Positions 21,206 through 26,933 of a DNA stretch of 26,954 nucleotides are shown in pieces (the stretch's first letter is position 1; each line of letters starts with the position of its first letter). Position numbers and translations under genes: made by a program. Source of the DNA: a virus (Duplodnaviria > Heunggongvirae > Uroviricota > Caudoviricetes); IMG/VR virus record IMGVR_UViG_3300005289_000054, one strand, 5' to 3'. Below the pieces are notes generated by a model, which was not told the origin of the DNA, did no database searches, and saw only the letters and a program-made list of their open reading frames with translations.

Positions 21206-22738
21206 TTATCCCATTTTTAATTTTTTAGCGTTGAACTTAGGAAGTTCTCGTTTAGTTGCAACTACATTAAATGCTGTTGCTGTAGAGTCACACATATCAT
21301 CTTTCTTTGCTGAGGTAGAACGTTTACCATCAAAGGATTCAAGCTCATTAAACAACATTGAATTCCAATCTGCTTTAAGCACATCTATTAATCCATTTTG
21401 AGAAGCTGCTGAGAATGGCTCGAAGTTTTTCATCTTGCCGTTTGAGCTACTAACTTTAATGAAATAAATAGGTATTTTTTGTTCTGCAAATATCTTTGCC
21501 CAATATTGTTTAGCTGTCTTTCCAGCAGCGCCTGGGTCTTCAGGAAGATATGCTTTATAGTTCTTTTTATAGAACTCTCTGTCTTTTCTAATTATGTCTA
21601 GAACAGCTTCTTCCACGTCACCAGAACGTTTTTGAAATCGTTCAACATGCTCGATAATATATCTTCCATTTTTTGTTTTAGCTAATAATGTTCCTGCTGT
21701 CCAGTCAGGGAAAGGATTGCTTTCTGTTGGAACTGTAGCTGCTAAGTCAAATACTCTGACACGAGAAACAATATCTTCTTCTGGAGGCATTGATAATAAT
21801 AGAGGCTCAACCCAAGCACGCTTAAAGTGACCACCAGCTTCTTCACGAGCAAACCAAGAACCATATAACATACGTTCTTTTTCTACACGACTTAAGTTTA
21901 AAAGCTTTTGTAGGTATGCTGGATCGGCTCTCATTAGTGGTGGGTTGTCGTAAACCGTAGCACCAATAAATTGAAACTTCATTGGTTTACATTCAGATTC
22001 ACCAGTAAATTGGTCAACACCATATAAGTGACTGTAGGTGTCAAACAACTCTTCATAAGTTGCAGCCCACACGTAATCGTTACCTTGTTTTAAGAAGTAA
22101 CGATAGTCACCATTTCTTTCTGGGTTTGGTCTACCACTAACATCTACGCCATCAATGAACGTTCCTTCAGGATATAGATAATAATCTCTAATCCATTCTA
22201 GAATGTAAGAATCAGGATCAGGGTTACATGTAAGCCAAATACTTGGCTTCATTGGCGTTCCGTCAGGCTCTTTCGCTAAAGTTCGAAGACCTTGGATAAT
22301 CCATTCAATCTCATCTAATGTTAAGTGAGTTGCCTCATCTACCATTGCGGCAGAGATTTGTTTACCTTGTAAGGCATTTTTACCAGCTTGACCATCTAAA
22401 CCAATAAATGTAAAGTCAGCGCCAGTTAATCTTTTGTGACCAGTGGAATGTGGGAATTTAATTGCCATTGGCTTTTTGGTGAATTCGACTCTTGGGTCAA
22501 ACTGTGTAAACATTTTCACAGCTTCATCAAATGCACCACCGCCGCCAACCATGTCTGTCGAGTTCTTACGAATTACATAAGCATGGAAATTATCATCGTG
22601 AACCCAACGTAAGAATCTCATCAGACTTGTGAAGGTTTTACCAGAACCACGCGCACCACCGTAAACAATTACGTCAGCATCAGATTTAAGAAACTTTTCT
22701 TGAGGAGGGCTTGCTGGTCTAAATAATACTCCAGACAT
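21206..22738 (-). CDS. terL: Terminase large subunit
   Basis: Walker A YGGARGSGKT, Walker B AMVDEATH, coupling motif LTCNP, RNase H-like nuclease (FDLAAT...DDMCDS); SD GGAGGT. Confidence 0.97.
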   Translation of the reverse strand: MSGVLFRPASPPQEKFLKSDADVIVYGGARGSGKTFTSLMRFLRWVHDDNFHAYVIRKNSTDMVGGGGAFDEAVKMFTQFDPRVEFTKKPMAIKFPHSTGHKRLTGADFTFIGLDGQAGKNALQGKQISAAMVDEATHLTLDEIEWIIQGLRTLAKEPDGTPMKPSIWLTCNPDPDSYILEWIRDYYLYPEGTFIDGVDVSGRPNPERNGDYRYFLKQGNDYVWAATYEELFDTYSHLYGVDQFTGESECKPMKFQFIGATVYDNPPLMRADPAYLQKLLNLSRVEKERMLYGSWFAREEAGGHFKRAWVEPLLLSMPPEEDIVSRVRVFDLAATVPTESNPFPDWTAGTLLAKTKNGRYIIEHVERFQKRSGDVEEAVLDIIRKDREFYKKNYKAYLPEDPGAAGKTAKQYWAKIFAEQKIPIYFIKVSSSNGKMKNFEPFSAASQNGLIDVLKADWNSMLFNELESFDGKRSTSAKKDDMCDSTATAFNVVATKRELPKFNAKKLKMG

Positions 22739-23192: not shown

Positions 23193-23555
23193 TCAGAAGA
23201 AGACATGGTTCCCAATTTTACATTTTAATGATTTACCAAATCGAACACCTAAACGTTGATGATTGAAGTACAAACTTCCTTTGGTATAATTTGTTTTCTT
23301 TGTAGAAAAGTTCTTCGCTACTTTCAGCGATTCATCCCAAGCCTTATTTTCATGCTTAGGCGGTTTTAAAGATTGTGAACCTTTGTACCAAGAAAATTGT
23401 CCTTTTTGTTTTACTACACCACAATATGAATTAGGATAATCTGAATGATTACTCCTGTTATGAATAACCTCTGCAACAGCATACTGCCCTTTAGTTGGTT
23501 CACCTTTTGATTCATTAAATATGGCAATAGCTAAACATAATATAGCTTCTGTCAT
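23193..23555 (-). CDS. Cell wall hydrolase, SleB/Hydrolase_2 family
   Basis: CLAIAIFNESKGE (catalytic Glu), AVAEVIHNR, GQFSW, GSLYF and IGNHVFF motifs. Confidence 0.92.
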   Translation of the reverse strand: MTEAILCLAIAIFNESKGEPTKGQYAVAEVIHNRSNHSDYPNSYCGVVKQKGQFSWYKGSQSLKPPKHENKAWDESLKVAKNFSTKKTNYTKGSLYFNHQRLGVRFGKSLKCKIGNHVFF

Positions 23556-23725: not shown

Positions 23726-24148
23726 TTATATTATTAAGATCCCTGCATGTACTTTTCGATGACAATTTGAACACAGAACAATACATTTGCGAATCTCTCT
23801 CTTTAAACTATCTGTTGAGTATGAAACCGCAACACTAACATTAATATCCTTCTCTTTAGGATTTAAATGGTGAAAGTCTAAAGCTACTGGTTCATTTTCA
23901 ATGCAAAAATGGCAACCACAAAACCTTTTATATTTGTAAATAAGAGAACTATTATACTTCTTATTTTCATCTCTTCTCGACTTAATTGAATTACGTCTTG
24001 ATTCACTTTTTAAATAAGAGTTACTATCAATCTCTTTTCTACAAGATTTACAATTAACTTGTAATCCATCTTTTCTTTTTGAGGACTTATGATACTCTGA
24101 AAATCCTTTATCTTCTTTACACCTAGGACAAACTTTACTACCCATCAT
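23726..24148 (-). CDS. Free-standing HNH endonuclease
   Basis: N-terminal CPRC...CKSC zinc motif; CHFC...LDFHH...CIVLCSNCHRKVH HNH core; sits between two tRNAs. Confidence 0.88.
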   Translation of the reverse strand: MMGSKVCPRCKEDKGFSEYHKSSKRKDGLQVNCKSCRKEIDSNSYLKSESRRNSIKSRRDENKKYNSSLIYKYKRFCGCHFCIENEPVALDFHHLNPKEKDINVSVAVSYSTDSLKREIRKCIVLCSNCHRKVHAGILII

Positions 24149-24160
24149 TCCCTCTCAATT

Positions 24161-24235
24161 TGGTGCTTCTACCAAGACTTGCACTTGATACTCAACGTTA
24201 CAAAGGTCGTGTTATACTACATTAACTATAGAAGC
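24161..24235 (-). tRNA. tRNA-Thr (TGT), non-canonical T loop
   Basis: GCTTCTA/TAGAAGC-A-CCA; anticodon loop TT-TGT-AA with a C31.C39 mismatch; T loop TGCAAGT. Confidence 0.8.
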
Positions 24236-24242
24236 ATTAAAT

Positions 24243-24260
24243 GCGAGGATTGCTCCTCGC
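24243..24260 (-). other. GNRA-capped hairpin (possible terminator or processing element)
   Basis: GCGAGGA-GCAA-TCCTCGC, 7 nt upstream of tRNA-Thr; only a weak U tract (ATTTAAT). Confidence 0.55.
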
Positions 24261-24274
24261 GCAAAACAGAAAGT

Positions 24275-24631
24275 TTAATTCTTACTGTTTTGTTTGTCAA
24301 CAGTGGACTGAATCCATCTAGAAAACTTATTAAAAGCAATTGCTAATTCTTTTGAATTCTCTGGTTGCTCACTACAAAAGCTTCCAAACATCTTTAATAA
24401 CAATCCTTCATCATAATTTGAATTGTGATTACCAGCTATTGTGTTAGGTGTTTGGGTGTTTTGTTGAACACTACCAGAGGGAATAGAATTAACTTGAGGG
24501 CCATTATGAACAACATTTTGATTGTATCCGTAAGGAGTTCCATTCACCATTTCAAGAATTTGATTTTGATTATAGCCCATTCTGAGTAGACTATTAACTA
24601 AATTATTTAACTGGAAATTACTGTTGTTCAT
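24275..24631 (-). CDS. Hypothetical protein with Asn/Gln-rich N-terminus
   Basis: SD GGAG; 26 of the first 73 residues are N or Q, with only one Arg and one Glu. Confidence 0.75.
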   Translation of the reverse strand: MNNSNFQLNNLVNSLLRMGYNQNQILEMVNGTPYGYNQNVVHNGPQVNSIPSGSVQQNTQTPNTIAGNHNSNYDEGLLLKMFGSFCSEQPENSKELAIAFNKFSRWIQSTVDKQNSKN

Positions 24632-24643
24632 ATGACTCCTATA

Positions 24644-25477
24644 TTAAGCTCTTACGTTAGTTGGGTTAGCTGTTTGTGGTCCACTTGCAACAGCTCCAGT
24701 GTTACCAATAATTAAAGATTGGTTTGTCGCTCTTGCAATTTGAGATACATCACTAACACAATGTGCTAATTGACCTATCAATTGTTGTTGTTGTTGGAAT
24801 TGTAACTGATTTTGATTTTGGTTATTAATCATGTTAATTTCAATACCATGTCGGTCATCGCGTCTACGACCTTCATTACGAAGTTCGATGATTTCGTCTT
24901 GACGTTCTGCTGCAATACGATTAAGTTCAGCAATTTGGTTTGATGTAATTAATGCACGAGTTTTTTCACCGTCATCTTTTACTGTAGTTGCTAACTGCCA
25001 ACCAAGACGTTCGATATTAGTGTTTGTAACACCTTGACCAATGGCTACTTGAGTTGATAATGAATCTACAGCATCTTTTGTATTTGCAAAACCTTGTACA
25101 TTAGCTAATTGACCAGTGAATAACTGGTTAGTTAAAGCAAGAGTTTGTGCTTGATTTTGTTGTGTGATATCAGATTGAGCACCAGCTAATGCAAGTTGCA
25201 TTTGACCTTCTGCTAATGGTACTGCTGCCTTAATATCTGCTAAGTTTGAAAGGATTGCATTTGTATCAATAGCGCCTTGAAGATTATTTAAACCATCAAT
25301 ACCACCATATCCACCGCAAGGCATACCATTGCCATATCCGTAACCACCACCAAAATTACCGAACCCTCGGTTCAAAACTGAACCTAAAACCAAACCGCCT
25401 AATAAGCCACCACCCATTCCAAAACCATCATTGTTTCCAGTTGCAACAAGTGAAGGCATAGCTGCTTGATATTCCAT
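24644..25477 (-). CDS. Hypothetical Gly-rich / coiled-coil / Gln-rich protein
   Basis: Probable start ATG 25477 (MEYQAA) after AAGGA; GMGGGLLGGLVLG glycine zipper, GF/GY repeats, helical middle (DDGEKTRALI), NQNQNQLQFQQQQQ. Confidence 0.85.
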   Translation of the reverse strand: MEYQAAMPSLVATGNNDGFGMGGGLLGGLVLGSVLNRGFGNFGGGYGYGNGMPCGGYGGIDGLNNLQGAIDTNAILSNLADIKAAVPLAEGQMQLALAGAQSDITQQNQAQTLALTNQLFTGQLANVQGFANTKDAVDSLSTQVAIGQGVTNTNIERLGWQLATTVKDDGEKTRALITSNQIAELNRIAAERQDEIIELRNEGRRRDDRHGIEINMINNQNQNQLQFQQQQQLIGQLAHCVSDVSQIARATNQSLIIGNTGAVASGPQTANPTNVRA

Positions 25478-25489
25478 TTTGTTTTCCTT

Positions 25490-25517
25490 AAAAAGAAAGT
25501 AGAACCAATCTCGGTTC
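25490..25517 (-). terminator. Candidate leader terminator upstream of the Gly-rich protein gene
   Basis: GAACCG-AGAT-TGGTTC followed by TACTTTCTTTTT, which abuts the SD. Confidence 0.45.
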
Positions 25518-25564
25518 AAAGTATCTAACCCACCCTGAGTTAGAATTTCAGAAAAAGATTCGAC

Positions 25565-25690
25565 TCAGCCTTCCTTCTGGGCTTCCATCAACATCTTTAA
25601 AATTTCTACTAATTCTTCTTGAGTTTCATAATAAAATTTTACTTTTACTTTCTCTTTTCCACATTTAATTTCATAACAGCATTTTTTCAT
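25565..25690 (-). CDS. Small 41-aa ORF
   Basis: Not in the ORF track: MKKCCYEIKCGKEKVKVKFYYETQEELVEILKMLMEAQKEG*; only a weak SD (GAG). Confidence 0.5.
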   Translation of the reverse strand: MKKCCYEIKCGKEKVKVKFYYETQEELVEILKMLMEAQKEG

Positions 25691-25715: not shown

Positions 25716-25786
25716 TGGCAAATCACCAGTGAATCGAACACTGCTACTGAGTTTTGGAGACTCTGTTCCTCGCCAGAGGGCGACTT
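25716..25786 (-). tRNA. tRNA-Trp (CCA), shortened D arm
   Basis: AAGTCGC/GTGATTT-G-CCA; GAGT-CTCCAAA-ACTC; CAGTG-TTCGATT-CACTG; only 71 nt. Confidence 0.78.
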
Positions 25787-25792
25787 ATAAAT

Positions 25793-25878
25793 TGGCAGAG
25801 AGCATCAGTCTCGATCTGAATCCTTTTACAGACGTTCGCGTTAGCAGTGCGACCTAGAACCTATCTAGTTTACTCTCT
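25793..25878 (-). tRNA. tRNA-Ser (GCT), non-canonical T loop
   Basis: AGAGAGT/GCTCTCT-G-CCA; loop CT-GCT-AA; long variable arm; T loop ATCGAGA. Confidence 0.82.
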
Positions 25879-25886
25879 ATAGTATT

Positions 25887-26605: not shown

Positions 26606-26620
26606 TAACATAATATGTTA
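26606..26620. promoter_or_regulatory. Perfect palindrome, possible operator
   Basis: TAACATA-A-TATGTTA, 17 nt upstream of the minus-strand -35 box. AT-rich, so it may be chance. Confidence 0.3.
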
Positions 26621-26732
26621 GTCTTTATACTCCAACACAATAAGGATAACTATTAGTATAACAATACTGACAAGAGAAATCAGGAAGGCAAATAGGATGA
26701 ACTCTTTAACCCAAAACAAGTAAGTCAAGTAC

Positions 26733-26933
26733 TCAATAATCGTCATTAGAAGTATCCTTGTATTTGAAATCTGAATACAGAGAAGTTATCTCTTCGTCAT
26801 TAAGTATGTAGACATCGCCATTCTTATCGTTATATCCGTATGCTGCCTCTCTTACTATTTTTAGGCATGTGTAGCATAGGTCTTGATTCTTGGCATAATC
26901 TTTAATCTGGTTATCACAGGCTGCACATCTCAT
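26733..26933 (-). CDS. Small putative zinc-binding protein
   Basis: MRCAACD...LCYTC (CxxC...CxxC), SD AAGGA, acidic C-terminus. Confidence 0.7.
   Translation of the reverse strand: MRCAACDNQIKDYAKNQDLCYTCLKIVREAAYGYNDKNGDVYILNDEEITSLYSDFKYKDTSNDDY

Follow-up and report, generated by a model that had tools for sequence, protein, structure and literature searches.

A conserved, mobile two-gene operon of tailed phages encodes a predicted glycine-zipper rod and a helical-hairpin partner and appears to be a sister of T5.077-T5.078

The window analysed here is a 26,954-nt stretch of a tailed-phage genome (Caudoviricetes; IMG/VR record IMGVR_UViG_3300005289_000054), and our subject within it is a pair of adjacent minus-strand genes that lie among tRNA genes and encode proteins of 277 aa (P0001, the rod) and 118 aa (P0002, the partner). 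Both open reading frames (ORFs) are real genes, and together they form a conserved, mobile and dispensable two-gene accessory operon of tailed phages. Judging from profile comparisons, the window pair appears to be a Cys-less, Q-ladder variant and a divergent sister of T5.077-T5.078, an uncharacterised early operon of phage T5. The original prediction for this DNA had described a three-gene cassette of prion-like low-complexity proteins, a description from which our results depart in both the number of genes and the nature of their products.

A mobile two-gene unit

Three minus-strand ORFs of 41, 277 and 118 aa are present as first described, and the two larger ones carry the good Shine-Dalgarno (SD) sequences attributed to them (Table 1). 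Their start codons are supported by a MEYQ start common to the rod homologues and, for the partner, by a conserved LVNxLLRMG upstream of an alternative Met. The smallest ORF (P0003) has no family match in the Pfam, NCBIfam, PADLOC and PHROG libraries, and tblastn finds nothing like it in 42 related loci (numbered below with an L). Its SD is weak, and its ATG lies 2 nt past the end of a sigma70-like -10 element. Given that it has neither a homologue nor more than a weak SD, the 41-aa ORF is probably not a gene of the module, and the unit is one of two genes rather than three. It was also said to be bounded by a structured leader and a hairpin. The hairpin is stable (-13.5 kcal/mol, z -3.66, with 0/200 shuffles as stable), but its U-tract is weak, which makes it no more than a candidate terminator. 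The leader is no more stable than shuffled sequence (z -0.92), though it has a terminator-like hairpin and T-run inside it, and it is not conserved among related loci. Promoter-like sites near the pair reach consensus level only, and the pair is co-oriented with the flanking tRNAs.

The two genes travel as a unit. At about 26 of 33 rod loci a co-oriented small gene follows the rod gene within 0-70 nt. This gene is of the A1 type, that of P0002, at 13 loci (hidden Markov model (HMM) E 3e-14 to 2e-24), of the A2 type, shorter but with a comparable F....DGK pattern, at about 10, and of an unrelated B type (MKIRF...ALKYW...HG.K) at five. At one locus (L006 6804-7484) the rod gene is followed by two partners in tandem, one of B type (119 aa) and one of A1 type (101 aa). 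The seven loci with no obvious partner are among the most divergent. The association also holds in reverse, as L041, found by the partner profile alone, has a rod homologue just upstream (E 2e-32).

The pair is present in some genomes and missing from close relatives. Phab24, a phage with 72.7% identity to the window in its large terminase (TerL), has only a 650-bp gap where the pair sits in the window and in a metagenomic relative (L003); within this group of phages, then, the pair is an accessory one. Its other positions are upstream of the terminase gene (L006, L011), next to genes for holin and endolysin (L009, L012), following tail-fibre genes (Iodobacter phage PhiPLPE, L024/27/31), between the genes for capsid and adaptor in an E217-like phage (L041), amid replication genes (KLER1-1) and alongside NAD-salvage genes (L010). 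A pattern-limited scan of 185,579 species genomes returned only three loci: an intact copy in a prophage, a remnant and a fragment. In Lelliottia wanjuensis (L036 4953-7066) an intact rod gene and partner gene occupy a prophage end, just after HicB/HicA and adjoining the host genes purB-hflD-mnmA; a prophage end beside host genes is the classic position of a moron. In Buttiauxella brennerae (L037 5600-8340) an N-terminally truncated rod gene and an intact partner gene lie by an integrase fragment and a tRNA cluster, adjoined by an Hcp gene with a putative effector/immunity pair.

The placement inside a tRNA array is confirmed, with tRNA-Ile, Asn and Ser called by ARAGORN upstream of the pair and tRNA-Thr, Pro and Met downstream. 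A functional coupling to the tRNAs, which had been suggested from this position, is not borne out across the family: tRNAs flank the pair only in phages with tRNA arrays (the window, L003, L006, L011 and T5), and 25 of 34 related loci lack any tRNA within ~5 kb. The link is positional, and is better explained by a shared hyperplastic region, which also holds homing endonucleases, than by co-function.

At about 11 loci a divergent small gene of one of two kinds precedes the rod gene. The zinc-ribbon kind (CxxC...CxxC...RCRTR; 53-70 aa) lies on the opposite strand, ~80-100 nt upstream of the rod gene (L001, L002, L016, L022, L023, L029), is unannotated in Acinetobacter phage At2, and is a candidate regulator of the pair. 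The alternative, which is ribbon-helix-helix (RHH)-like (60-85 aa; Y.ARLT...AR.A..IG.GN.S.GIR.AI), takes the same position at five loci (L008, where it is PhiPLPE gp37, L017, L025, L028 and L034). These small genes and the B-type partners have no Pfam or PHROG match.

Architecture of the rod and the partner

P0001 has 1012 homologues at E<=1e-3. Metagenomic phage contigs account for most of them, and not one carries a Pfam domain or an informative name. Conservation was assessed on an alignment of 34 rod homologues (alignment A1), in which it is highest in just those stretches that have the appearance of low complexity. The first of these is the N-terminal glycine zipper, which had been recognised correctly: it is a conserved run of three GxxxG motifs, a pattern by which helices pack in membranes, with the consensus GxGGGLLGGLLLGALLG and four Gly at i, i+4 spacing. 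G20, G24, G28 and G32 sit within FGMGGGLLGGLVLGSVL, and their columns are at least 90% conserved. The tandem GxxxG lies in a hydrophobic segment of helix length, with a mean Kyte-Doolittle hydropathy of 1.66 across 17 residues in 120 homologues, and its insertion into a membrane is a prediction. The surrounding N-terminus (residues 1-62) is 35% Gly. Further conserved blocks are PLAExQxQLA, DGEKTRALI and the near-invariant GIEINMINNQNQNQLQFQQQAQ. P0001 has two isolated Cys residues, and no column of the alignment is conserved for Cys.

The second such stretch is the Q-ladder, which is 67% N+Q and whose columns M216 and Q220-Q232 are invariant or nearly so. Its "NQNQNQLQFQQQ" run is nearly invariant in the family and is thus a motif rather than low-complexity drift. 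The C-terminal tail follows the consensus ARATNQ..IIGNTGA...G.QTANPTNVRA, with A250, T251, N252, G258, G266, Q268, P272 and N274 conserved, and distant members of the family retain an alternating T/N/Q-x ladder together with the tail. AlphaFold2 (AF2), run with the homologue alignment, predicts a single continuous helix over residues 64-261 (mean predicted local distance difference test score, pLDDT, 72.6 for the protein and ~85-95 over most of the helix), within which the Q-run is modelled confidently (pLDDT ~90). Confidence is low for the Gly-rich N-terminus and the last ~20 residues (pLDDT <50 for 257-277). The predicted helical rod of ~200 residues would be ~30 nm long, and it contains four heptad-like hydrophobic segments (68-102, 117-158, 173-207 and 215-263) with shifts of register as in segmented coiled coils. 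One metagenomic protein of 699 aa (P0129) apparently fuses the rod family to GpA-type terminase domains; this is probably a gene-call read-through that indicates adjacency only.

The partner had been described as a protein whose first 73 residues are N/Q-rich and almost uncharged. The composition stands, since residues 1-73 are 36% N+Q with only 2 charged residues; residues 4-30, however, are conserved helices and only residues 31-71 are disordered and variable. AF2 places helices at 4-17 and 22-30, disorder at 31-71, and a hairpin of two helices (72-88 and 90-116) at pLDDT >=90. The linker, modelled at pLDDT ~48-50 and lacking secondary structure, is 32% N+Q with 0 charged residues and differs in length and sequence between homologues. 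Across the family the N+Q content of the N-terminal part ranges from 6 to 42%, and in some members the linker is nearly missing. Given this variation between conserved flanks, we regard the N/Q stretch as a variable spacer that joins two conserved helical modules. The hairpin has the consensus LLKM(F/Y).(E/S)F....(D/N)(G/S)K.L...(L/F).KF(A/S)R(F/Y/W).QS.V.K, in which F85, F103, R105, Q108, S109 and K113 are invariant.

The partner module was first recognised by reading the genes directly downstream of rod homologues. A word-based homologue search with P0002 returned only P0002 itself, the method being limited by low-complexity sequence, and tblastn of P0002 against phages gave no match. With a profile of 11 partners, a search of 1.84 billion representatives yielded 79 clusters at E<=1e-3.

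The partner also provides the firmer link to phage T5, in which T5.077 defines PHROG 8119 and T5.078 defines PHROG 7894. A partner HMM built without P0002 and its closest relative recovered P0002 at E 1.1e-13 and T5.078 at E 6.5e-10, and hhalign of a 50-member partner alignment (A4) against T5.078 gave a probability of 98.1 (E 8e-14). Sister partners from L009, L011, L014 and L016 match PHROG 7894 (8e-10 to 1e-3); P0002 alone falls below detection against it. The small partner is thus a member of the T5.078 family. For the rod, the match of P0001 to PHROG 8119 is weak (E 3.3e-4) and covers residues 13-137 only. Two rod homologues (P0025 and P0114) match PHROG 8119 weakly as well (4e-5 and 5e-4), over the N-extension, the glycine zipper and the first part of the helix. 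A direct hhalign of the rod against T5.077 aligned only a 29-column glycine-zipper block (probability 95.9, E 5.6e-9).

Proposed role and competing explanations

These data allow us to propose a mechanism for the pair. The rod would homo-oligomerise through its heptad segments and Q-ladder, and this would gather the glycine zippers into a bundle in or on the cytoplasmic membrane. The hairpin may be the part of the partner that docks on the rod, with the partner serving as adaptor or regulator. In this way the pair would alter a membrane or envelope property of the infected (or lysogenic) cell, for example by excluding other phages or by tuning membrane integrity or lysis timing, and would not be a builder of the virion. 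Both rod ends are conserved across unrelated virion types, so the rod is not specific to one kind of virion. The explanation as a whole, in which a mobile accessory operon that is a sister of T5.077-078 supplies a membrane-tethered oligomeric rod and a cytoplasmic adaptor acting on the membrane of the infected cell, is one that we hold to be evenly poised between right and wrong. An accessory role in host interaction is the most plausible class; any specific function is a guess, and a tentative one. A further-reaching and rather doubtful possibility is that both families, which comprise thousands of phage genes, constitute a previously unrecognised phage membrane apparatus, with a zipper-bundled ~30-nm rod, a Q-ladder and control by the hairpin adaptor, that gates or remodels the host membrane, for instance to exclude rivals or to counter membrane-based defence.

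Several observations weigh against this explanation. The hydrophobic segment is short and Gly-rich, with a mean hydropathy of 1.66, so that its insertion into the membrane is not certain. The topology cues of the rod conflict: the 20 residues N-terminal of the zipper are nearly free of K/R (mean 0.33 in 120 homologues) and a conserved Arg follows just C-terminal of it, yet in about half of the rod homologues the N-terminus is lengthened by a charged, His/Lys-rich extension with conservation at the protein level, and T5.077 has a long charged one too. The local charges favour N-out/C-in, but the charged extension could not cross a membrane, so that the rod may lie either in the cytoplasm or in the periplasm. 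The match between P0001 and T5.077 is weak outside the glycine zipper. The A2 and B partners are not demonstrably homologous to P0002, as hhalign aligned A1 with A2 over just 20 columns (P 0.009) and did not align A1 with B, and the A2 types do not match PHROG 7894. In some phages (L041, L024/27/31) the pair lies inside structural operons, which would fit a virion role too. Pfam, NCBIfam and PADLOC returned nothing for any of the three window proteins, a PDB sequence search with the rod profile gave chance coiled-coil rows only, and fold searches returned only the homologue PhiPLPE gp38 for the rod (against BFVD) and nothing for the partner (against PDB). The ESM Atlas added only unnamed viral clusters and generic long-helix matches, and megablast of the region against phages gave no match. 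In the literature we found no relevant paper on T5.077/078/079, on KLER1-1 or on glycine zippers and phage exclusion, and no homology to a characterised ordinary protein emerged, the relatives T5.077/T5.078 and PhiPLPE gp38 being themselves uncharacterised.

The pair could instead be a lysis accessory, either a periplasm-spanning spanin-like or holin-like element or a regulator of lysis timing, with the partner as its modulator. The N-terminal anchor and long coiled coil of the rod do resemble i-spanins and the class III holin T, and in the window, L003, L009, L012 and several IMG/VR loci the pair has an endolysin or holin gene only a few genes away. This enrichment of neighbours is only about twofold by a rough estimate, however, and at many loci the lysis genes are distant. 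Phab24, which has no copy of the pair, still lyses its host. Beside the pair in L009 there is a separate, typical Rz-like i-spanin as well as a holin and an endolysin, no lipobox is found in the partner or in nearby small ORFs (the window region, L003, L009 and L012), and the partner has no signal peptide; on these grounds we rejected the spanin form of the proposal. The lysis-accessory reading as a whole we consider unlikely.

A long coiled coil followed by a small gene also mimics the pairing of a trimeric virion fibre (whisker, head or tail fibre) with its chaperone. In PhiPLPE-like loci the pair comes after tail-fibre genes, in L024/L027 it overlaps a tail-fibre-like gene by 11 nt, and in L041 it stands between the genes for the major capsid and adaptor proteins. 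Fibres vary at their receptor end and adapt at their attachment end. Both termini of the rod, however, are conserved across Mu-portal myophages, P2-like phages, E217-like phages and T5; its C-terminus, where a tail fibre would have its variable distal end, is among its most conserved parts, and most loci are outside tail modules. A hydrophobic glycine zipper would be odd in a soluble fibre, and the pair is found also in the early or replication region of KLER1-1 and T5 and at the end of a prophage, often accompanied by its own putative divergent regulator. PhiPLPE gp38 is named 'putative tail-fiber protein', which is an annotation; its entry lacks the 'confirmed by MS' (mass spectrometry) note given to gp34 and gp35. 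We think a fibre with its chaperone quite improbable.

A similarly poor prospect is a regulated membrane-pore toxin, in which a zipper channel would depolarise the cell (in an abortive-infection-like response, in exclusion or in killing), the partner would be its inhibitor and the divergent gene its repressor. Tandem GxxxG, which the rod has, is reportedly typical of channel-forming homo-oligomers, as at the VacA N-terminus. The partner gene is tightly coupled downstream, divergent zinc-ribbon or RHH-like genes recur, and one copy of the pair lies at a prophage end beside a HicAB toxin-antitoxin pair. Against a toxin, there is no PADLOC match and only one short hydrophobic segment, and in lytic phages like that of the window the divergent regulator is missing and the pair is co-oriented with late genes.

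The original prediction, that N/Q- and G-rich regions assemble these proteins into prions, amyloids or condensates, can draw on the nearly uncharged N/Q-rich part of P0002, the N/Q stretch and GF/GY-rich spacer of P0001, an alternating polar-x pattern in distant rods that could fit beta strands, and poly-Q runs in T5.078, but it is very improbable, because the Gly- and Q-rich stretches of P0001 are conserved position by position in a family of >1000 members, the Q-run lies in a confident helix, and the N/Q stretch of the partner behaves as a spacer rather than a functional core.

The proposal of a membrane-tethered rod with a hairpin adaptor concerns one of the larger phage protein families to have neither a name nor a Pfam model, with >1000 homologues in addition to the T5.077 family. 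The pair is spread across unrelated phage backbones, the model phage T5 included, and the question is tractable because T5 and Acinetobacter phage At2 are culturable carriers. If the unit does act on the host membrane, it would represent a new kind of phage host-interaction module.

Genomic setting and comparison with known systems

The window, whose genes are all on the minus strand, corresponds to a tailed-phage late region and also encodes a Mu-type portal, protease, major capsid protein, tail fibres and tape measure. Among cultured phages, those closest to it in the terminase are the Acinetobacter myophages (~93 kb) Phab24 and Ab3 (72.7% identity), B9 and TaPaz, and the window derives from an uncultured Phab24-like myophage, probably of Acinetobacter. 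No holin or spanin is recognisable adjoining the endolysin gene of the window. The upstream flank of the unit had been taken for tRNA-Trp, which is called there neither by ARAGORN nor by Rfam (E<=1); at best the element is a degenerate cloverleaf, possibly a decayed or non-canonical phage tRNA. Between it and tRNA-Ser lie ~100 nt (25788-25886, minus strand) with no ORF or Rfam match, and T5 has 'tRNA-like stable RNAs' at comparable positions. Upstream of the array, a 42-aa ORF (26618-26746, minus strand) encodes an almost wholly hydrophobic peptide, possibly a small membrane protein.

Table 1. Coordinates of the two-gene unit, its parts and its neighbours in the window
Feature	Coordinates	Strand	Description	Basis
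Rod gene (P0001)	24644..25477	(-)	277 aa; ATG 25477; AAGGA SD	ORF, homologues, AF2
Glycine-zipper hydrophobic segment	25373..25423	(-)	Rod residues 19-35; G20xxxG24xxxG28xxxG32, then Gly/Phe/Tyr-rich spacer	
Q-ladder motif	24776..24838	(-)	Rod residues 214-234; I-N-M-I-N-N-Q-N-Q-N-Q-L-Q-F-Q-Q-Q	
Conserved C-terminal tail	24647..24730	(-)	Rod residues 250-277; non-helical in model	
Partner gene (P0002)	24275..24631	(-)	118 aa; ATG 24631; AGGAG SD; 12 nt past rod stop	ORF, family, HMM
Disordered linker	24419..24541	(-)	Partner residues 31-71; variable, uncharged, N/Q/S/T-rich	
Conserved helical hairpin	24284..24418	(-)	Partner residues 72-116; family signature	
GC-rich hairpin	24243..24260	(-)	7 bp, GCAA loop; directly 3' of partner gene, 8 nt before tRNA-Thr	
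Leader	25478..25564	(-)	Between 41-aa ORF and rod gene; terminator-like hairpin and T-run at 25502-25517	
41-aa ORF (P0003)	25565..25690	(-)	Cys/Lys ORF; unsupported	
Trp-like element	25716..25787	(-)	Degenerate tRNA-Trp-like cloverleaf; anticodon CCA; 4-bp D stem, 4-nt D loop	Minimum free energy fold
tRNA-Thr(UGU)	24161..24235	(-)	Downstream flank	ARAGORN + Rfam
HNH endonuclease gene	23726-24148	(-)	PHROG 2255, E 2e-37; between tRNA-Thr and tRNA-Pro	
Endolysin gene	23193-23555	(-)	SleB/Hydrolase_2-type, 120 aa; directly upstream of putative small terminase	
Large terminase gene	21206-22738	(-)		

Two familiar systems share features with the pair. Lambda Rz/Rz1 spanins likewise have an N-terminal hydrophobic anchor, a long coiled coil and a small second gene, and lysis genes are often near; unlike them, the pair has no lipoprotein partner, its rod is twice the length of Rz, and there is no sequence or profile similarity. 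Phage morons (lambda bor/lom, HK97 gp15, T5 llp) are, like the pair, dispensable, patchy in distribution and located at module boundaries or prophage ends, sometimes with their own regulator, promoter or terminator and with a product predicted to be membrane-associated. They are a genetic category rather than a family, however, and no member resembles the rod or the partner.

Among named proteins, gp38 of PhiPLPE is a true homologue of the rod (tblastn 2e-14; Foldseek 1.7e-6). Its gene is followed by that of the 50-aa partner gp39 and has the divergent RHH-like gp37 in front; gp39 is of the short A2 type and not demonstrably homologous to P0002.

The closest parallel to the unit as a whole is T5.077-T5.078, which has the same order, with the rod gene first and the partner gene directly downstream. 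T5.077 resembles P0001 in its layout of a glycine-zipper segment, a Gly-rich spacer and a long Q/N/A-rich helix, and T5.078 has long poly-Q runs. The T5 operon also lies in a region of tRNA and homing-endonuclease genes, with heg genes placed like the HNH endonuclease gene of the window within the array. The two rods differ in that T5.077 has a charged His/Cys-rich N-extension and an AECCCEL (Cys-Cys-Cys) motif, neither of which is found in P0001, whereas P0001 has an invariant Q-ladder and an NPTNVRA tail in their place. The T5 operon has its own promoter (P12) and a bidirectional terminator and is counter-oriented, whereas the window pair is co-oriented with its neighbours. T5.079, a Cys-rich peptide, does not align with P0003 at E<=100, and no T5.079-like ORF is found in the window region. 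At another locus (L040 2-613, 1054-1209) the region upstream of an HAD_SAK_2 adaptor gene contains a fragment of a T5.077-like rod, a partner of the A1 type and an ORF weakly resembling T5.079, in the same position as the P0001-type pair of L041.

The window thus ties two different-looking rod families to one partner family. Given this shared partner family, the conserved core is the glycine zipper, the rod and the hairpin partner, as against the lineage-specific Cys triplet, Cys-rich peptide and N-extension. The T5 operon has long been annotated and never characterised; new here are a second large rod family, reached through the shared partner, two kinds of divergent small gene and a copy at a prophage end.

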